DNA of 64,000 nucleotides from contig JBHLOF010000004.1 in assembly GCA_048940805.1 (NCBI GenBank), positions 33,946 through 97,945 on the forward strand, in the 5' to 3' direction. A program made the position numbers and the translations under genes. The notes beneath the pieces were generated by a model. The model was not told where the DNA came from, ran no database searches, and saw only the letters and a program-made list of their open reading frames with translations. Shown here in pieces: positions 2,220 to 12,700 of this stretch. How positions within the stretch are numbered: the first letter of the stretch is position 1; the number at the start of each line of letters is the position of its first letter. Source of the DNA: Promethearchaeota archaeon (GTDB lineage: Archaea; Asgardarchaeota; Lokiarchaeia; Sigyniarchaeales; SOKP01).

Positions 2220-3065
2220 GTGGTTATGGGGAAGAAGAAAAAGAAAGAAAAAAAGAAAAAAATAGAAGATAATACTGAAGATATAGCAGTAACACCTGAA
2301 TATTCACTAGATGTAGCGTTACATTCCACGAAAACGACAGAAACAACTTTACAGAGTTTAATGAGGGAAGTTTCTGAAGAGAAAGGATTTGTTAAAAAAG
2401 AGCAAGAAAAAATTCGACCCCAATTATCCCATGAAAGTAAAAGTGAAATCGCGGAAGCTTATGCTTTAGAGGATGTCCCAATAGCAGAGAGAAAAAAAAC
2501 TCAGAAGCGAGAGAGACCCCCACTTGTTTCCGAATCAAAAAATTTAGTGAAGCCCATGGAGTCCAAAGAGCAAGAGTTAAAAACTAAACCAAAAATACAG
2601 GTAGAAGTCACAACAGTTCCCACTCCTGTTGAAAAAAAACCATCAGTGTCTAGTGAAGATGTAGCTCCCTCACCTATCATTGAGGAAACTCTCGGTATTA
2701 AAAAAGAAAATATCTATCTTAAATTATCAGAGTTTTTTGAGGATCTACTGGGAGGTTATAGTGCGAGGTATGAAAGGTGGGAAAATTCGATATCTAACAT
2801 TCTGGCAATTATGAGGAAAATGAGAAAGATAACAAAGAAAAATACTGAGGATTTAACAATTAGTATTCAAAATTTATTTGGGAAAATCCAAAATCAGTTA
2901 GAACTTTTCAAAGTTAAACGTGATGAAGTTGAAAAAGTAGCCGAAGTAGACATTGAATCAATGTCAGGTGAGTTAAAAAGAGTAATGGGATTGCTTGAAT
3001 TACAGGTCAAAGAATATCGATTGAAAAGAGAAACAGATGAATTAATCCATGCATTAAAATACTGA
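2220..3065 (+). CDS. K/E-rich low-complexity protein with helical C-terminal domain, function unknown
   Basis: Poly-Lys N-terminus (MGKKKKKEKKKK; ATG at 2226), a long charged linker and a predicted helical C-terminal ~110 aa. It lies 49 nt upstream of the actin-family gene on the same strand. Confidence 0.5.
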   Translation: MVMGKKKKKEKKKKIEDNTEDIAVTPEYSLDVALHSTKTTETTLQSLMREVSEEKGFVKKEQEKIRPQLSHESKSEIAEAYALEDVPIAERKKTQKRERPPLVSESKNLVKPMESKEQELKTKPKIQVEVTTVPTPVEKKPSVSSEDVAPSPIIEETLGIKKENIYLKLSEFFEDLLGGYSARYERWENSISNILAIMRKMRKITKKNTEDLTISIQNLFGKIQNQLELFKVKRDEVEKVAEVDIESMSGELKRVMGLLELQVKEYRLKRETDELIHALKY

Positions 3066-3114: not shown

Positions 3115-4293
3115 ATGGCATCTGAAATCAAAAGTCAAACTCGACCACTTATACTCGATATTGGGAGTAATTTTTTTCGATTAGGATGGGCAGGAAGTGA
3201 TTATCCTGAAGTTATTGCCCCGAGTATCTATGTAAATAATACAGATTATTTATTTACCTCAGATGTAATTGATGGTTTAGAAGATATATTTGTGGGAGAG
3301 GATAATGTCGAGAATCAGTTATTTGGCCATGAAGCTTTAAAATATTCAAATGTGCTTAAAGTGCATGAAGTAAAGAGTAATTATAATATTTTGATGAAAT
3401 ATTTTCATTTTCATTATAAACAACTTGAAATTGAGAATGAATATCTTTTCAAACAGCCAATTATCATTATTATTCCTTTCTTTATGTCAGAAATAGAGAA
3501 AACAAAATTATCTGAGATGTTTTTTAACGTTTTTGATTTTCCTGCGTTATTTTTTTTACCGGATAGTCAAGGAGTGTTAGGTATATTACAAAAATCCAGT
3601 GGAGTGATTATAAATATGGGAGACGCGAACACATACATTACATCTTTTCTCCATGGCTTTACTAACATAATGGCAAGAGACACATACCCAATTGCAGGAA
3701 AGGACCTTACAGATGCGCTTCTAAATATGCTTTTAAAGGGATCCGCTAAGAACTTATATCTTGATTATATGATTGCAAAAGAAATTAAAGAAAAACTCGC
3801 ATTTTGCGCATTAAATCCTGAAGAAGAATTAAAAAGGATAAAGGATGGTCTAACTAAATTCAAGAGTGCAGTTGATTTACCTGATGGTTCGAAACTTGAA
3901 ATTAATTCAGAAAGAATCCAACTTGTAGAACCCTTATTTAATCCTTCAGTAATTCATATGGATTATATTAGTTTACCTGAGGCTGTAGTAAATGTTATCC
4001 GAACATGGGATCGGGAGGATTGGAGTGAACTATTACCAAATATTGTTCTTGCTGGCGGTGCTAGTTTAATCCCTGGATTAGAAAAAAGGTTAAAAATTGA
4101 AATTTCGAAGTTCTTTTCTGAACGATTAAGAGATAAAATTAATATAATTGCTACTACCGGAAGAGATACAATTAGTTGGGTTGGAGCAAGTGTACTGTGG
4201 GCTCAAGGAAAACTAACAAAAGGGTGGAGCTATAATCCCAATGCTCCAACTGAAGAAAAAAGTTCCAAAAATAATGATCTAAATTCTAATTGA
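3115..4293 (+). CDS. actin-family ATPase, divergent actin-related protein (Arp-like)
   Basis: Actin-fold motifs in the correct order: phosphate-1 'LILDIGSNFFRLGWAGSDYPEVIAPS', phosphate-2 'GVIINMGDANTYITSF', adenosine 'VLAGGASLIPGLEKRL', and connect-2 'WVGASVLWAQ'. Confidence 0.85.
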   Translation: MASEIKSQTRPLILDIGSNFFRLGWAGSDYPEVIAPSIYVNNTDYLFTSDVIDGLEDIFVGEDNVENQLFGHEALKYSNVLKVHEVKSNYNILMKYFHFHYKQLEIENEYLFKQPIIIIIPFFMSEIEKTKLSEMFFNVFDFPALFFLPDSQGVLGILQKSSGVIINMGDANTYITSFLHGFTNIMARDTYPIAGKDLTDALLNMLLKGSAKNLYLDYMIAKEIKEKLAFCALNPEEELKRIKDGLTKFKSAVDLPDGSKLEINSERIQLVEPLFNPSVIHMDYISLPEAVVNVIRTWDREDWSELLPNIVLAGGASLIPGLEKRLKIEISKFFSERLRDKINIIATTGRDTISWVGASVLWAQGKLTKGWSYNPNAPTEEKSSKNNDLNSN

Positions 4294-4312: not shown

Positions 4313-6916
4313 TTGAGTGTCAACTTAGAGATTAATAAAGAGTTTTTAGAGGACTTCCAGAAAAAAATTATCATAGCACGTAAATTACTGTTTTCTGCAA
4401 ATCATAAATGGGCGTCAAAATTACTCGATAATTTAGGTATGGCAATCGAGAAAAACGATTGGCTAGACATACAGAAAAAGCATCAATTAAATATGATCAT
4501 TTCGAATTCATGGTGGATTTATTTAAATTCTCTGGTAAAAAGAAAAGAGGGAAAAGTTGAAATCGACCTTATAAGGTATATTGATGCATATAAACGATTT
4601 TTCGCCTTTTTAACAAGTTTAGATGATTCTTATTTATTTTATAATTTTGGAATAAATCTTCTTATGCAATTTATTACGATGGAGGATTTATCGCAGATTG
4701 GGATAACAAAATACATAAATTCCTTTTCTGTTGAGTTAGAAAAAAGAGAAGAATATCAAAAGTTAATCGAATTACAAATTTTATTAATACATTTAAGACA
4801 ATCAGTTAGTCCATCAGAGCATTTCCATCTAGGTATGGAGATTCTTGGAAAAACTATACTTAAATTAGAGCCCAGTAAGAGAGCATTATTTATTTATATG
4901 ATATTAGAAAATGTATGCATAAAATATCAACTTATGGAAGATTCTTCAGAATTCATTAAATCAATAGTTAAGATTATGATAAACCGCCTTCCACAATATC
5001 TAAAAAATGAATTTAGTGGTATCAGTAGGATCTCTATTAATGAGAGAAGTTTTAACACAATCATAATCGATCTTGAAGAAACAATTAATTATTTAAATGA
5101 TATTGGGGAATATCCTTGGATTATATTTATAATTAGAAATATATTTTCAAAAATAAAAGATTACCAATCGTTTGGTGATGCAATAACATATATACGTAAA
5201 TTTATTGATTTCTCAATAAGGAGAAATCGATTTGAAATTGCGTTTGAAATCTATGATTTTTTGGAAGATCTTTTTATTTACCAAACAGACCTTTCTTATG
5301 ATAATATTTTGATCGAACTCTGGGTTGAAGCATGTAAAAAATTCGTAGATATGAAGGAGAAAAAGTATTTATTACAGTCTCTTGAAAAATTGAATAATCA
5401 TCTAAAGATACCTCAAACAAGTGCTGAAATTTTTCATTATTTTTATACCTGTGATAAACTGTGGCAATTTAAATCAATGTTCTTTTCATTAGAGCAACGA
5501 GATTTCTGGAGAATGATGTTTTATCGAGCTTTATTCGAGGAAAAAAACTTTAACATTGCTCAGAAAATCGTTCCTTATCTTGATAAGGATTTAGGATCAT
5601 TATTATCCGATATAATTTCACTATCTAAAGAGGCAGAATCCTTTAAGGAAAAGATATACTCATTTGGCACGGAGGAAGATTTTCGTGTATTAGATGATAA
5701 AAATTTCGTAATAAAAGATATAATAATTCGGATTAATTCAATTGGGATAATTTCATATAGAATAAATTCGACTAATAACCAAATTGTTGAAGGAACTTTA
5801 AGGAGAGAAACGTGGAATGACACCCAAATTATTGAAATTTATAATGAATTGTTTTCTGAACCAGAAAAACGAAAATTTACATTCACTTTACATGAATTTG
5901 GTGAAATATTATACATTTTTTTACCAAAATTAATCCGAGATTTCTTCAAATCTTTTAAAATAAAAAGTTTGAATATAGTACCCCAAATTTATTTTATACT
6001 TGATAGTATGACTATACCATTTGATTTAATTTATGATAATAATTTCTTTTTATTAAAATATTCAAGTGGGTATAAAATTGGAGAGATCCCTCTTGGAGGC
6101 ATAGCATTTGAACATGAATCTTTGATAAAATCTCCTTCAGTATCCTCCTCAACAAAACATAATGTCTTAATTGTTGATTCAATAAATTCTAAAATACCGT
6201 TGAGATGGAATGAAGAACTCCAAAGAAAGGAATTAATCTATCCGTTCTCAGCGGGAGCAAATGAATTGAATTATATTGTAGATTTTTTCAATAAAATTAA
6301 TGAAATCGACCAAATTAAAACACTTATCGGGCCTTCTTCAACTAGGGATGCAATTTTGACTCACGTTACAAAAGATCTTTACCATATAATTGTCATCGTT
6401 GGAAATATCTTCTATTCAAAATGGAGTCCTAAAGATAGCTTTTTTTTAACAAATGATAATGAAACTATAACTTTCAGTGAACTGTGTAGTTACTTGCATC
6501 GAAAGGATGCAAAAATTCATCCCTTTTTATTTTTTAATGCCCAAATTTTTGATATTGAGGGTCAAAAATTAAGAAATGTTGTAAGACCTTTTGGTGAAAT
6601 TATCTCACAATTTAACCAAGATGAAATTACCGGTATAATTGTAAGACCATATCCATTATTTAATGAAGAAACAAAAGAAATTATTTCCCAATTTTTTCTT
6701 AATCTCCTTAGAAATGCAAGTCAAGGAGTATCTCTTCTTAAAGCCCGTCAAAAATGTATAGCAAATAAAATGGAAAAAATGGTAGAAGACCAATTTAAAG
6801 ATACATCTATGGAGGGTGGAAGTGTAAGAATCGATTTAAGAAGTAGTTTGGCCGTCTCAAGCTATTTACTTTTTGGAAAACCATGGAAAAAATTAAATTC
6901 TGAATCAAGGATATAA
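4313..6916 (+). CDS. large helical-repeat (TPR-like) protein with C-terminal CHAT-like (caspase-fold) domain lacking the catalytic dyad
   Basis: 867 aa. The C-terminal ~290 aa follow the CHAT layout: 'IYFILDSMTIPFDLI', 'LIGPSSTRDAILTHV..YHIIVIVGN', 'PFLFFNAQIF', and 'GIIVRPYPLFNEETKEIISQFFLNLLRNASQGVSLLKARQ'. It starts 19 nt after the actin-like gene. Confidence 0.6.
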   Translation: MSVNLEINKEFLEDFQKKIIIARKLLFSANHKWASKLLDNLGMAIEKNDWLDIQKKHQLNMIISNSWWIYLNSLVKRKEGKVEIDLIRYIDAYKRFFAFLTSLDDSYLFYNFGINLLMQFITMEDLSQIGITKYINSFSVELEKREEYQKLIELQILLIHLRQSVSPSEHFHLGMEILGKTILKLEPSKRALFIYMILENVCIKYQLMEDSSEFIKSIVKIMINRLPQYLKNEFSGISRISINERSFNTIIIDLEETINYLNDIGEYPWIIFIIRNIFSKIKDYQSFGDAITYIRKFIDFSIRRNRFEIAFEIYDFLEDLFIYQTDLSYDNILIELWVEACKKFVDMKEKKYLLQSLEKLNNHLKIPQTSAEIFHYFYTCDKLWQFKSMFFSLEQRDFWRMMFYRALFEEKNFNIAQKIVPYLDKDLGSLLSDIISLSKEAESFKEKIYSFGTEEDFRVLDDKNFVIKDIIIRINSIGIISYRINSTNNQIVEGTLRRETWNDTQIIEIYNELFSEPEKRKFTFTLHEFGEILYIFLPKLIRDFFKSFKIKSLNIVPQIYFILDSMTIPFDLIYDNNFFLLKYSSGYKIGEIPLGGIAFEHESLIKSPSVSSSTKHNVLIVDSINSKIPLRWNEELQRKELIYPFSAGANELNYIVDFFNKINEIDQIKTLIGPSSTRDAILTHVTKDLYHIIVIVGNIFYSKWSPKDSFFLTNDNETITFSELCSYLHRKDAKIHPFLFFNAQIFDIEGQKLRNVVRPFGEIISQFNQDEITGIIVRPYPLFNEETKEIISQFFLNLLRNASQGVSLLKARQKCIANKMEKMVEDQFKDTSMEGGSVRIDLRSSLAVSSYLLFGKPWKKLNSESRI

Positions 6917-7021
6917 ATAATAAAATTAAATAAAGATCAAATTAAGGTATAATTACAAAAATTAAAAGTGCCTCTTGAATAAAATAAACATAATATTAAT
7001 AATTTACTAAGGTTAACATCG

Positions 7022-7561
7022 ATGTCAGATCCCCGTATAATAGAACTAAGAGTTGAAAATAAGAAATTAAAACAGGAAATTGCATCTTTAGAAGAAAAGA
7101 TTTTATCTTTAGTTGGAATGTTTAATATTGAATCTTCTGGAGGGCAGGATAAAAAAAATGTACTCAATGATCAAATTTTTAATTTAATTGGATCAACAAA
7201 GGAACAACTTAATATTGTAACCCCCAAAATCGACGAATTTTATGTAAGAGAGTTGAAAAAACTTAGCCAAAAAGGAATCCCTATTCTAATGATTACGAAC
7301 GATAGAGCAAATTTGCCCAAACCTTATCGTCAAATTTATGATGATTTGAAAATTACAGAGGGGATAAGTATTATTAACAATCCAAATGTAAGGTTCTTGT
7401 TATTATTCAATATAACTCAAGCTATCTACTCTGGTGGTTCACTAGATAAAGAAGAGCTGGAAAAATCAATATTAGTAGTAACAACAATACAAGAAAAAGC
7501 AAAACTAAGAAAGATTGCAGAGATTTTCTCTTTAATGCTTCCCACTTTTATGAGGAAGTAG
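7022..7561 (+). CDS. coiled-coil protein with TrmB-C-terminal-like (inactive PLD-fold-like) domain, no HTH
   Basis: N-terminal heptad segment ('IIELRVENKKLKQEIASLEEKILSL'). It is followed by 'KEQLNIVTPKIDEFYVRELKKLSQKGIPILMITN', which resembles the TrmB regulator C-domain. The protein contains no His at all, so no HKD motif is possible. Confidence 0.4.
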   Translation: MSDPRIIELRVENKKLKQEIASLEEKILSLVGMFNIESSGGQDKKNVLNDQIFNLIGSTKEQLNIVTPKIDEFYVRELKKLSQKGIPILMITNDRANLPKPYRQIYDDLKITEGISIINNPNVRFLLLFNITQAIYSGGSLDKEELEKSILVVTTIQEKAKLRKIAEIFSLMLPTFMRK

Positions 7562-7568
7562 TAAAAAC

Positions 7569-9776
7569 TTGTTTTTTTTCAAAATGGGTCATAAAAAATC
7601 TATTAATTCTGAAACGATAGTAGAACGATTTGGTTTAGATTCAGACATTTATAAAGAGTTAATGAATTTTTTAAAAGAAAATCTTTCAAACGATTCCATT
7701 TATGAAAATAATCTAAAAGAATGGAATAAAGTTTTTACGAATATTTACGGGAATAATTTGAGTCCAGGTTTATTTTTGAAGCATACATATTTTGTCCTTA
7801 TATTAAAAATTGTTGTAGTTTATAAAATAAGTTTAGTAAAAGGCATTAACTTCGAAGAGATCTATAGTCGGTTAGCTGATATTGATAAAGAGGTATCTCA
7901 TATTTTTAATTTCAACTTTCTTTTTTGGTTTACTCCTAAAAAAGAGTTATTTGAAAAGGTGCTTAATGAGATTCAAGGCTTAGAGTTCGTAAAGGAAGAT
8001 ATCTTTAGTTATTTATATCAACATATCTTTGTTCCCGATATCAGGCATAAGAGAGGGGAATTCTTCACACCAACACGCCTTGTAAATAAGATGGTCGATA
8101 ATTCATACAAATTCGGATCAAAAGTTCTAGATCCTTCATGCGGTTCAGGTACGTTCTTAATAGGTATTATATTGAAGATTTTTGATTCTAACAAGTCAAA
8201 TCTGTCAAAATTTCAAGCATTTTCTAATGTTTTTGGTTTTGATGTGAATCCACTAGCGATAATCACAGCAAAAGCGAACATTTTCTTATTAATTATAGGA
8301 TATTTGGAGCCAAAGGATAATGCGATCTCACATATTAATATTTTCCATTGCGACTCCTTATTTCCAGAGGATTATGAGAATAAATCAGATGTTAATTTCA
8401 TCGATTTATATAATTCCTTCGATTTAATTATTGGAAATCCCCCCTGGATAACGTATAAAGATTTGAATAATAAGGCATATCAAAATAGAATTCGAGAATT
8501 AACTGATCAATTGAACATTAAACCCTCAAGTCAATACATTACTCACATTGAGTTAGCAACAGTTTTTTTTTATGCAATCCCAATCAAGTTTTTAAAAAAA
8601 AAAGGTGAAATCTTTTTTGTAATGCCTAAAAGCTGCTTGAATGGTGATCATTGCTATGAATTTAGGTCTTTTTCAATTTTTAATGCGGACCTAGAAATAT
8701 GGGATTTTCCCAATAATTACTTTTTCAATGTTGAACATGTTTGCTTAAAGGCTGAATACATTGGGATAAATGATAACATCTCAACTCGAGTACACTATCC
8801 AATTAAAGCTAAGATTTTTGATGGAAACATTAATCTTCTAAAAGAATTATCATATTCAAGTTTGAAAGTTGAGAATGATGGTGCACGGTTAATTTTGCCC
8901 GAACAAGATTTAAAAATTCTGAATCGAGTGGAAAATAGTGTTTATAAAAAAAGATTTGTTCAAGGAGCTACATTGGTCCCAAGAACACTTGTATTTTTCC
9001 AAATCAGAATAGAAAAAGATAACAGATTAATAATTGATTCTGATCCTGATGTATTATCAAGAGCAAAAGAAAAATGGATGTTCCGATTTCAAAATAAAGA
9101 AATTGAAGATAAATTCCATTTTAAAACATTTTTAAATATACATCTAATCCCATTTCATATAAAAATATTAAAAGATGTGTTTCTTCCAGTGGATGAGCAC
9201 CTTATGTTTAATATTGAATTTTTAAAACGCAATCCAAAAGCTTTTGAATTCTATAATGAAATAAATAATTTTTATCTAGAGAACAAAAAAGAAACAAGTG
9301 ATATTAATACCTTATCTGATAATTTAAATTATTGGAATAAATTGCAAAAGCAAGTAAATAATAAATCATTTATTGTTGTTTATAATGCTAGTGGCTCTAA
9401 TTTAAAAGCCGCGGTTATAAATAATGAGGATCAGAAAGTGATAATTGGATCTGAGAATTACTATCTTTCAACCGATTCAGAAGAAGAAGCTTATTATTTA
9501 TCTGCAATTTTGAATGCTCCCAATCTTTCAAGGAATATAAAGATAATAAAAAGTTCCAGGCACATACATAAACGACCCTTTAATTTCCCGATTCCTAATT
9601 ATAATCAAAATAATATAATTCATAAAAAATTAGCAAAAAAGGGAAAAAATTGTCATGTAGTAGTGCAAGAGTTATTTATGAATAATCCGAAAATTACTTC
9701 TAAAAAGGTAAGAATTTTCATTAATAGAAAGTTAGTAAAAATAGAAGAATTGACAGATAAGATTGTCTTCAAATAA
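7569..9776 (+). CDS. N6-adenine DNA methyltransferase (gamma-class, Eco57I/TaqI-like) with C-terminal target-recognition region
   Basis: Motif I 'VLDPSCGSGTFLI', 'FGFDVNPLAI', and motif IV 'DLIIGNPPWITYKD', in the order I then IV. An alternative ATG start exists at 7584. Confidence 0.85.
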   Translation: MFFFKMGHKKSINSETIVERFGLDSDIYKELMNFLKENLSNDSIYENNLKEWNKVFTNIYGNNLSPGLFLKHTYFVLILKIVVVYKISLVKGINFEEIYSRLADIDKEVSHIFNFNFLFWFTPKKELFEKVLNEIQGLEFVKEDIFSYLYQHIFVPDIRHKRGEFFTPTRLVNKMVDNSYKFGSKVLDPSCGSGTFLIGIILKIFDSNKSNLSKFQAFSNVFGFDVNPLAIITAKANIFLLIIGYLEPKDNAISHINIFHCDSLFPEDYENKSDVNFIDLYNSFDLIIGNPPWITYKDLNNKAYQNRIRELTDQLNIKPSSQYITHIELATVFFYAIPIKFLKKKGEIFFVMPKSCLNGDHCYEFRSFSIFNADLEIWDFPNNYFFNVEHVCLKAEYIGINDNISTRVHYPIKAKIFDGNINLLKELSYSSLKVENDGARLILPEQDLKILNRVENSVYKKRFVQGATLVPRTLVFFQIRIEKDNRLIIDSDPDVLSRAKEKWMFRFQNKEIEDKFHFKTFLNIHLIPFHIKILKDVFLPVDEHLMFNIEFLKRNPKAFEFYNEINNFYLENKKETSDINTLSDNLNYWNKLQKQVNNKSFIVVYNASGSNLKAAVINNEDQKVIIGSENYYLSTDSEEEAYYLSAILNAPNLSRNIKIIKSSRHIHKRPFNFPIPNYNQNNIIHKKLAKKGKNCHVVVQELFMNNPKITSKKVRIFINRKLVKIEELTDKIVFK

Positions 9777-9782
9777 AAAATT

Positions 9783-12700
9783 TCAAGCAAATTTTTCTTT
9801 CCACTCATCTAACGCATCAAGAAATTCTTTTTTGACTTTGTCTTCTAATATAGACCTTGTGGATCTTAATCGGCTAATCCATTGTCTTATTACATTTGCA
9901 GTAACAGCACCATGAGATTTCAATACTATATCTGAAATTTCTTGAAGGGAAATTGATAATATATTCCCTGGTGAAAGTTCTGTGTCTTGAATCAATTTAT
10001 CAATTAAAGAACTTAATCTACTACCACTATTAAAAGAGATTTCCAAATCTGGACTTTCAATTGAAGGCCCAAAATCTAATGATTGATTATTCTCATCTTC
10101 CTTAACGTATTTTTCTTTCCACTTGAAAAACACCATTACAAAATCTTCTTTAATCTCGCCACTGAGTGGATTCTTGATTTTACGGAGTTTGCTAACCCAA
10201 TCTTTTATATCTTTTAGAATCACAGAATATCCTTCTGTTTCCAAAATAATATCAACTATATTTTGCATACATTTACTGATGTCAATTCCACTTAATTCTG
10301 AGAAATTTTTTTCAATAGTCTCAAAATTTTCTCTTAATTCTGATGAAGGATCCTTCTTACTTGATTCTACGCTTCCAGTTATAGGCGAAATATTGTCATC
10401 TGTTTGGAATTGAGATTGAGACAAACCAGGACTAAAATATTCTTCTTCATAAACAGAAATTGAATTTTCTGCCTTTGATTTAGAAGCTGAAGGATTAATA
10501 GAAGACTGATCAACTCTTGATGAGTCACTTGGATGAGTGTGATTCAATATTCCCCATTTCCACCTTAATAAATCACTTTTAATTTGTTCTCTCTTTGATT
10601 CTTCCAAGATTTCATCGGTATCTGTCAAATTTTTCTTCCATTTGATAATTTGGGGATATCCTTGTAATTCTAGAACTACTTCAACTAATTTTTCAATCTG
10701 TTCTTTTAATTCTTTCTCGCTAAATTCTCCTATTTTTTTAAGAAAGATTTCAAATGTTTTATTGATTTTATCGGGATCGACCGTTTCAACTTTATATTCT
10801 TCCGAAATCATTTCCTCCTCTAAATCTTTTTGAACTCGTTCTTCGATTAGGGGGGGTCGGAATTCAGGGGGATAAATTAATTCAGTAGAGGAAAATTCAC
10901 TATTCAATCTATTAAGTTCATTAATAACATATTCTTTCAATTCATCAGATAAGGGAGTAAAAAGCTTCTCTATTTTTCCAATCAGTAATTTAAGCTCTAA
11001 TAAGTTAAGCGAGATTCCATTATTTTCAAAAGCAACGTCTAATAGCTTTTTTAATCTTTTAGCTATTTTTCTACCGGAATATTCATTTATATTTTCAATA
11101 ACTTCATTAAATCCTTTATTAATTTGGACATCTCTAGAAGGAAGAGCTTCATTTTTAATTTTAGATACAATTGGAATAAATAGATCAATCAACGGCCTAA
11201 AAGTAGTGTAAAAGCCGATTATATCATAATAAGGTTTCTGATCAATTTTTTGAAAAATTCCAAAAACCAAGTATGATTTATCCCCCAAAATCGCAATTGA
11301 TTTATTATCTAATAATCTTAAATAATCAAAATTTGGCTTTTCCCTAATAGCTGATGCATATTTGTTATTATGATCTTCCGATGAAATAAATGTGATATGT
11401 GGACCCATGTAATCAACTTTTTTATTCATTATTTTCTCTAAAGAAGATTTTTCTAATTCATTATTATCAGATGAATTTTCTGTTGTTTCTTCTATCTCCA
11501 CCTCTACTTTTAGAGTATATTCTTTTTTCCACTTTTCTATATGTTCTAAAAGTAAATACTGAGTATTTGAATCTAAATGTTTTCTAATGACTAACAACCT
11601 ATTTAACCACCCTTGTATGCTCTCGATAACTACCGATTCAGGATGAATTTCAGATATTTTTGACAATACTTCAGCAATATGATGACTGATTTCAAATCCT
11701 TTAAGCTCAGATACTTTTTTTGATACATTATCTAGCATTTGTTCAAATTCTTGCTTATGCTGCTTTGAAATGGATAGTTGTTTTTTCTGAGGTTTTTGAG
11801 GTTTAGTCTGAGTTTTCTCGCTTAGTGAAAATTCACTTTTTGTTTCAGCAAAAGAATCTAGATTTAATTTCTCTAGTGGAATAAAATTTGATAAACTGGG
11901 AACGATGATAGTTAACTCCTCTGTCGATTTATCAATTAAGATTGACACAATCTCTCTAATTTTCTCATAACTACTCACAGACAATAATTTCTCAAACACA
12001 AAACCATCGTTGCTGATGTAATCAGTTAGAATGTTGTATAATGACCTTTCTAACTTTTCAAATTTTCGAGCACTCAAGGAACTCTGTCCACCAGGTTTAA
12101 GAGAGAGTTCATTTATTCTTTTGTTAAGTGATTCACCTAAGTTTCTAATGAAGGTCTTAAAAGCATCAACTTGTTGAGGATTATCTGGATTCTCCATATC
12201 TTTTACGATAGCTCTAAATTGGGAAAACATATTTCCTGCAATTTCTTCAGATTCACTTACTTTTTTCTTAACAGCTGTGATCAACTTATTAATATCTCTA
12301 GCATCTATGGCTGACTGATTCTTTAGTGGGGTAATTAATTTGATTATATCAGTAAGGATTACTTCAGCAAACTTCTTAACATTTAGTTCAACTTCAGATA
12401 AAACTTCAGTTGTCTGACTGGTGTTGCTCTGATCGCATGTAGCATCAAGTAAATCTTGACTGATTCTTTCGAGATCTTGAAATAAATCATCTTGAAATTT
12501 TTCTAGATTTGAATCTTGCTTTACTTCATTTTTTTGAGCTTCAGAGGATTCTTCTATTAATTCTGTTATACTATTTAATATAGCCGCAATAGGGGGAATT
12601 GTAACATAATGAGGTAAAGAAGATGATGTCTGAAGGAGTAATTTTTTCTCAACAAGATTATCAATAATTTGTTGTATCTCTTCTTCTGATTGTTCACTCA

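Follow-up and report, generated by a model that had tools for sequence, protein, structure and literature searches.

How should one read a protein that has the layout of a CHAT protease, lacks the residues that do the cutting, and is encoded next to an actin relative? The question is raised by a gene in a 64,000-nt stretch of Promethearchaeota archaeon DNA (class Lokiarchaeia; assembly GCA_048940805.1, contig JBHLOF010000004.1, positions 33,946 to 97,945 of the forward strand), hereafter the window. The initial annotation, made from the letters alone, had proposed that the C-terminal part of this 867-residue protein is a CHAT-like domain with both catalytic residues replaced, that is, a non-catalytic caspase-fold scaffold. 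The analysis described here arrives at the same best reading and extends it: the protein appears to be a CHAT-superfamily homologue and not a functional CHAT peptidase, and we think it probable, with considerable room for error, that it serves the co-encoded actin-related protein (ARP) as a scaffold or regulator without catalytic activity. The pseudo-protease part of this explanation, taken alone, we hold with high confidence. The gene and the parts of its product are as follows.

4313..6916, + strand: open reading frame of 867 amino acids with a TTG start, leading from a solenoid through a small beta module to a putatively dead CHAT domain
4313..5647, + strand: N-terminal all-helical solenoid, residues 1 to ~445, in the AlphaFold2 (AF2) model; TPR-like by fold
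5690..5848, + strand: beta module of three strands and a helix, residues ~460-512, in the AF2 models
5876..6904, + strand: region of CHAT (caspase-haemoglobinase fold) homology, residues 522-864, from profile-profile alignment (hhalign) and Foldseek
6176..6250, + strand: family-specific insertion DSINSKIPLRWNEELQRKELIYPFS, residues 622-646, after the first core strand; a gap in canonical CHAT proteins (hhalign)

In the full-length AF2 model, which has a mean predicted local distance difference test score (pLDDT) of 77.7, a helical solenoid of ~445 residues leads through the three-stranded beta module into an alpha/beta domain. The solenoid comprises about 24 helices, mostly at pLDDT 85-95, and is the best-conserved section of the protein, mean entropy being lowest there in an alignment (A1) of 51 relatives sharing less than 85% mutual identity. 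Foldseek matches it to the TPR of LGN/Pins and to helical regions of Csx29, DdvA and separase. CHAT domains are often joined to N-terminal repeats of the TPR type; here a Pfam scan of the protein and the 51 relatives gave no TPR match. The strands of the beta module span residues 467-474, 479-486 and 491-500, and the close family (A1) shows no variation at W501, N502 or D503. In the same alignment, homologues pair with the protein beginning at residue 1. The G+C content of the genome is about 30%.

Searched singly, the protein matches the Pfam CHAT profile (PF12770) at E 0.014 and 15.3 bits over profile positions 36-184, under the Pfam cut-off of 24 bits. An NCBIfam scan of the protein gave nothing useful, and neither the single protein nor the family profile matched a CHAT chain when PDB sequences were searched; solved structures were reached through fold searches and an intermediate canonical CHAT profile. 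The sub-threshold score and the empty PDB searches, together with the modest fold scores given below, could be taken to mean that the CHAT likeness is spurious and that the domain has some other alpha/beta (Rossmann-like) fold. Assessed on the whole family, the similarity goes clearly beyond chance. PF12770 is matched by 24 of the 51 relatives (best E 1.5e-7). A search of 1.84 billion representative proteins with the A1 profile retrieved first full-length family members, to ~17% identity, and then proteins aligned only at profile positions ~645-820. The nine of these partial matches that were scanned are bona fide Pfam CHAT proteins (80-154 bits), canonical CHAT proteins being recovered at E 1e-11 to 1e-4; the retrieval is reciprocal.

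Profile-profile comparison was carried out with hhalign on the C-terminal 408 residues of the family (A3) and sets of canonical CHAT proteins. The first comparison gave a probability of 99.9% (E 6.7e-33) over 282 columns, covering domain columns 63-405; the second gave 99.85% (E 1.4e-30). The CHAT motifs 'IPwEL', 'P..S.L.L.D', 'FY...L..G...G.AL..AR' and the terminal 'WasF.lyGdP' are colinear in these alignments, the canonical C-terminal 'WASFxLYGDP'-like motif being present as 'SSYLLFGKPW'. The sequence blocks that the initial annotation had quoted in support of CHAT resemblance all stand where it put them, namely IYFILDSMTIPFDLI (residues 559-573), LIGPSSTRDAILTHV (671-685), SFFLTNDNETITFSEL (709-724) and GIIVRP...KARQ (774-813), and the resemblance itself is borne out by both profile and fold searches. 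The interval proposed for the domain, 5885-6757, does correspond to residues 525-815 but ends too early, as the homologous region runs on to about residue 864.

Foldseek searches of the PDB with the full-length model returned Csx29 at 6.4e-7, DdvA (a CHAT anti-sigma factor) at 8e-7 and human separase at 3.4e-4, followed by the TPR of LGN/Pins. Since the solenoid could drive these matches, residues 460-867 were modelled separately by AF2 (pLDDT 72.7; core 85-94). With this domain-only model, the top 45 matches are all caspase-fold proteins; they include SAVED-CHAT (8tl0, 1.5e-7), Csx29, DdvA, caspase-9/3/7/8, Caenorhabditis elegans separase and metacaspases. Template modelling scores (TM-scores) are modest, at 0.3 by query length and 0.45-0.52 by caspase length, partly because of two low-confidence loops. 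With all canonical motifs in order over the 282 hhalign columns, reciprocal retrieval, and caspase-fold proteins filling the whole top of the domain search, we regard the chance of a spurious likeness as negligible. Residues ~522-864 are thus best taken as a true CHAT/caspase-fold domain, in which the fold and most of the structural motifs are kept.

The active site was located by aligning the family to canonical relatives. Where these carry 'IIHYAGH' and 'FLNAC', the protein has 'IIVIVGN' and 'FFNAQ', in the hidden Markov model alignment as well as in both hhalign runs. For an experimentally defined anchor, a canonical CHAT profile (A4) was searched against the PDB: its His aligns to residue 585 of 7x8a_D and its Cys, counted along the alignment, to residue 627. 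The catalytic pair published for this TPR-CHAT is H585 and C627 (bioRxiv 10.1101/2022.09.07.506877). The positions that follow were assigned in this way.

6392..6394, + strand: Val694, in the column of the first (structural) His of 'H-x-A-G-H', from the alignments
6404..6406, + strand: Asn698 (AAT), in the catalytic His column, equivalent to H585 of Sb TPR-CHAT, from four alignments
6542..6544, + strand: Gln744 (CAA), in the catalytic Cys column, equivalent to C627 of Sb TPR-CHAT, from the alignments

The His-Cys dyad is thus replaced by Asn698 and Gln744, which would make cysteine protease action impossible. Both motifs read as the initial annotation had quoted them (YHIIVIVGN, residues 690-698; FNAQ, residues 741-744), and its placement of Gln744 (CAA, nt 6542-6544) in the Cys column is upheld by the dyad-anchored alignments. 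It had put the catalytic His at an Ile/Val position; this must be corrected, four independent alignments giving Asn698, two residues from Val696. Asn698 lies in a well-modelled part of the AF2 structure (pLDDT ~94). The Val694 column still holds His in 33 of 113 close relatives.

Neither replacement is a peculiarity of the present genome. Position 698 is Asn in 113 of 113 full-length close relatives and position 744 is Gln in 112 of 113. Seventeen divergent full-length representatives have N, Y, V, S or T at 698 and Q, R, K or L at 744, never His or Cys. A wide family alignment of 28 sequences (A2) reaches down to 17% identity. It shows Asn698 in 24 members and ranks this residue among the most conserved 9% of domain positions; at 744, Gln occurs in 18 and Arg in 8, together 26/28. 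Nowhere in residues 456-867 does a column of this alignment reach 60% His or Cys; the alignments place no His/Cys pair from elsewhere in the sequence at the active site. The replacements would therefore be ancient, no full-length relative having the dyad, and they appear to be under purifying selection, as expected of a site that was remodelled and kept rather than abandoned.

Conservation of N698 and Q744 far beyond that of a decaying site, along with retention of the CHAT substrate-cleft motifs 'P..S.l.l.D', 'FY' and 'G.aL..AR', might also be read as the mark of a protein that is still an enzyme, a hydrolase or lyase working through non-canonical residues (for example Asn698, as in asparagine peptide lyases) or through residues of a partner. 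However, the spread of residues at 698 (also Y, S, T and V) and 744 (R, K and L) in the wider family leaves no single chemistry conserved, and residues 456-867 offer no conserved His/Cys/Ser triad candidate. We know of no active caspase-fold enzyme without the Cys. An enzyme of this kind is, in our estimate, very unlikely. Conservation at the two positions rather suggests that the former active-site cleft was retained for binding instead of decaying. The insertion at residues 622-646 is relevant here: N625, P629 and W632 are invariant across the family to 17% identity, making this segment a candidate family-specific binding element beside the former active site.

The distribution of the gene was determined in 400 genomes of the phylum. 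The full-length protein is found in three families of one Lokiarchaeia order: in 117 of 134 genomes of the family to which the source genome belongs, in the one genome of a second family, and in 7 of 14 of a third. Outside that order, the search yielded C-terminal matches only, to ordinary CHAT proteins. The gene is single-copy and occupies a fixed chromosomal place in at least 26 genera, with 60-87% identity within its own family; all relatives come from metagenome-assembled genomes (MAGs) of Lokiarchaeia/Promethearchaeota. The family is vertically inherited and confined to one Lokiarchaeia order. Exact look-up identified a homologue in the cultured Promethearchaeum syntrophicum MK-D1 (DSAG12_01480, QEE15653.1), annotated as 'hypothetical protein' and labelled 'CHAT domain protein' by UniRef, and another in Lokiarchaeota CR_4. 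Some members are automatically labelled CHAT in public databases. A full-text literature search found no paper on an Asgard CHAT-like protein, an Asgard separase, an archaeal CHAT protein together with actin, or the MK-D1 locus tags.

Some carriers bear unexpected names. One contig of an actinobacterial MAG (DATKTW010000028.1, under the name Candidatus Nanopelagicaceae bacterium) has a copy of this Lokiarchaeia-specific gene, at 61% identity, and is probably a mis-binned Asgard contig. The order-restricted gene also occurs in several MAGs assigned to Thor-, Hod-, Hermod- or Odinarchaeota, which suggests that the taxonomic labels are loose.

A dead caspase-fold protein might serve an active one, as cFLIP does with caspase-8, by acting as a decoy or regulator of a CHAT protease encoded elsewhere. 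Caspase-fold domains commonly dimerise, and the Foldseek matches include caspase-9 dimers and SAVED-CHAT filaments. However, the source genome, 97% complete, has no other PF12770 match at E <= 0.01 and no canonical CHAT gene, and canonical CHAT matches are sporadic in the order, with an extra C-terminal-only match in a few genomes. We give such a role hardly any credence.

The closest catalytically intact CHAT relative in Lokiarchaeia is encoded at G124:C184 (L037, 14-4571). It is 1012 residues long, with 'IHYAGH' and 'LNSC' intact, and its gene is preceded by GHKL/HATPase_c and small Toprim genes; there is no actin gene. This neighbourhood looks like a conflict-system context.

What, then, does the protein described here bind? 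The genes around it in the window are listed below.

2220..3065, + strand: lysine/glutamate-rich (K/E-rich) protein of 281 amino acids, the conserved upstream frame gene
3115..4293, + strand: divergent actin-family protein of 392 amino acids, 'ARP4' (Pfam Actin, E 4e-46)
7022..7561, + strand: PLD-like protein of 179 amino acids (weak PLDc_2 match), the conserved downstream frame gene
7569-9776: gamma-class N6-adenine methyltransferase of 735 amino acids, Eco57I/type IIG-like, with no recognisable nuclease part

The ARP4 stop codon lies 19 nt before the start of the CHAT-like gene. ARP4 is the most divergent (weakest match) of four actin-family genes in the genome, a number that fits the pattern of Lokiactin plus three ARPs in L. 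ossiferum (PMC9834061). Neighbours were counted in 80 related loci, all from close kin. The ARP gene directly adjoins the CHAT-like gene, in the same orientation, in 74/76 loci, and the K/E-rich gene is upstream on the same strand in 71/71. On the other side, the PLD-like gene (~175 amino acids) is adjacent downstream in 67/69 loci and the type IIG-like methyltransferase follows it in 52/56, an unusually stable placement for a gene of restriction-modification type. The order K/E-rich, ARP, CHAT-like, PLD-like is kept in MK-D1 (where the ARP and CHAT-like genes are DSAG12_01479 and DSAG12_01480), in genome G138 and in CR_4, in which the CHAT-like protein is only ~24% identical. In three lineages the ARP gene is separated from the CHAT-like gene by 19 nt, by 3 nt, or overlaps it by 4 nt.

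Genomes lacking the CHAT-like gene provide a second line of evidence. G135 and G132, both of the third family and one of them a single contig, are without it and retain the PLD-like gene. At these loci (L118, G135:C1:3827000-3845000, 6294-7580; L119, G132:C15, 6119-7386) the PLD-like gene comes immediately after the K/E-rich gene, at a distance of ~20-110 nt. Neither the CHAT-like gene nor ARP4 was found anywhere in G135, G132 or G137, each of which has three actin-family genes; G137 was counted at the genome level, the abutting flanks being those of the G135 and G132 loci. In these three genomes the best match of an ARP4-specific profile is Lokiactin, at ~200 bits, compared with 303-476 bits for true orthologues. 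ARP4 was likewise missing from five near-complete genomes without the CHAT-like gene in the source genome's own family, assembly gaps being possible there. Given shared presence and absence and the abutting flanks, ARP4 and the dead CHAT gene behave as a two-gene unit. The two frame genes, K/E-rich and PLD-like, may form a functional pair of their own, which the ARP/CHAT-like unit joined or left.

Two divergent loci deserve mention for their gene structure. In G138 (L034, G138:C1:4576000-4595000, ~10700-11790, minus strand), the ARP open frame has 363 codons and begins 'GIHITDVKFD...', with no ATG, GTG or TTG near the N-terminus; the first canonical start would leave only 307 amino acids and remove the first actin motif, which points to a non-canonical start codon. 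The idea that it is a pseudogene was rejected, the apparent stop lying upstream of the open frame and the gene being intact. The likely start of the G138 CHAT-like gene overlaps the ARP stop. The second locus, G134:C113 (L035, 6823-10224, minus strand), holds a very divergent family member of ~23% identity, cut by the contig end. Here the K/E-rich-type gene comes after rather than before, and the G134 PLD-like gene is on another contig; the locus is either a rearranged cluster or a paralogue.

The same surroundings lend themselves to a different interpretation, in which the locus is an anti-virus defence island and the CHAT-like protein works as a sensor or adaptor with the PLD-like protein and the type IIG-like methyltransferase, much as CHAT proteins do in type III CRISPR and cyclic oligonucleotide-based antiphage signalling (CBASS) systems. 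The nearest solved relatives, SAVED-CHAT, Csx29 and DdvA, are indeed defence proteins, the methyltransferase matches type IIG models of PADLOC, and P0178, the nearest Lokiarchaeia relative with an intact dyad, has HATPase_c and Toprim genes next to it. Against this, a single-copy gene at a fixed place in at least 26 genera is unlike the patchy, mobile genes of defence; PADLOC gave no match for the CHAT-like, PLD-like, ARP or K/E-rich proteins; and there is no catalytic dyad for an effector role. Moreover, presence of the gene follows that of the ARP gene and not that of the PLD-like gene, which stays behind without it in G135 and G132. Altogether, we consider a defence function improbable.

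Tight gene coupling and joint gain and loss make a scaffold or regulator of the co-encoded ARP the most likely role, a role and a physical interaction that we infer from these patterns. The protein would bind ARP4, or a peptide of ARP4 or of the K/E-rich neighbour, and would do so through its TPR-like solenoid and the dead protease cleft. Several points weigh against this proposal. The cleft location of N698 and Q744 comes from alignment, not superposition, and model confidence is low at residues 572-613 and 830-867. Synteny was scored in 80 close loci from kin, which are not independent, and the co-absence amounts to perhaps two or three loss events, in MAGs with possible assembly gaps. Finally, the PLD-like (67/69) and methyltransferase (52/56) genes downstream leave some room for the defence interpretation.

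A more specific version of the scaffold proposal can be put forward tentatively, and we would not bet on it at even odds: ARP4 and the solenoid/dead-CHAT protein might make up a dedicated cytoskeletal module of two subunits, restricted to Lokiarchaeales, in which the former protease cleft clamps the actin-family subunit or its regulator. Such a module, if real, would be a prokaryotic counterpart of the large helical scaffolds that hold ARPs in eukaryotes and would provide the first dedicated partner for any Asgard ARP. Asgard archaea have several ARPs of unknown function and partner, and only Lokiactin has been studied in cells (PMC9834061). The most divergent Asgard ARP thereby gains a specific and testable candidate partner, a scaffold derived from a protease, and the family offers a clean prokaryotic example of a conserved pseudoenzyme that arose from a caspase-fold protease.

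Among characterized proteins, the closest in overall layout is TPR-CHAT (Csx29) of the type III-E CRISPR 'Craspase' (7x8a, 8eey), which combines a TPR-like solenoid with a C-terminal CHAT domain, shows colinear motifs, and is the best full-length Foldseek match. Unlike TPR-CHAT, the archaeal protein has Asn698 and Gln744 in place of His585 and Cys627, an insertion with N625, P629 and W632 and, ahead of the domain, a beta module; its neighbourhood is not one of CRISPR or other defence genes, and its partner gene is an actin relative. SAVED-CHAT, the protease linked to type III CRISPR and CBASS (8tl0), comes closest in fold to the isolated domain (E 1.5e-7) and is also the best PDB match of the canonical relatives; here the SAVED sensor domain, the dyad and the link to defence are all missing. 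More generally, the genomic linkage of defence CHAT effectors (Craspase, SAVED-CHAT, DdvA-type) is not seen, the neighbours being the K/E-rich, ARP, PLD-like and methyltransferase genes, with no PADLOC match to the CHAT-like protein. Pseudo-caspases such as cFLIP have followed a similar course, keeping the caspase fold, losing the catalytic residues and functioning by binding. They differ in domain context and lineage, and in that the source genome has no active CHAT paralogue with which the protein could pair.

Separase (peptidase C50) resembles the protein in having a large helical region and a caspase-fold domain (Foldseek E 3.4e-4 with the full-length model, 5e-3 with the domain). Membership in the separase family was considered and rejected: the separase profile (PF03568) is unmatched in all 51 relatives and is matched weakly by canonical CHAT relatives, the fold match is weaker than that to prokaryotic CHAT proteins, and the dyad is absent. 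Its restriction to one Lokiarchaeia order means that the family is not a plausible separase ancestor either. In separase an adjacent pseudo-protease accompanies an active domain, whereas the archaeal protein has no active domain. As regards mode of action, however, separase holds securin as a pseudosubstrate, and so provides a comparable case of a non-cleaving caspase-fold module gripping the peptide of a partner.

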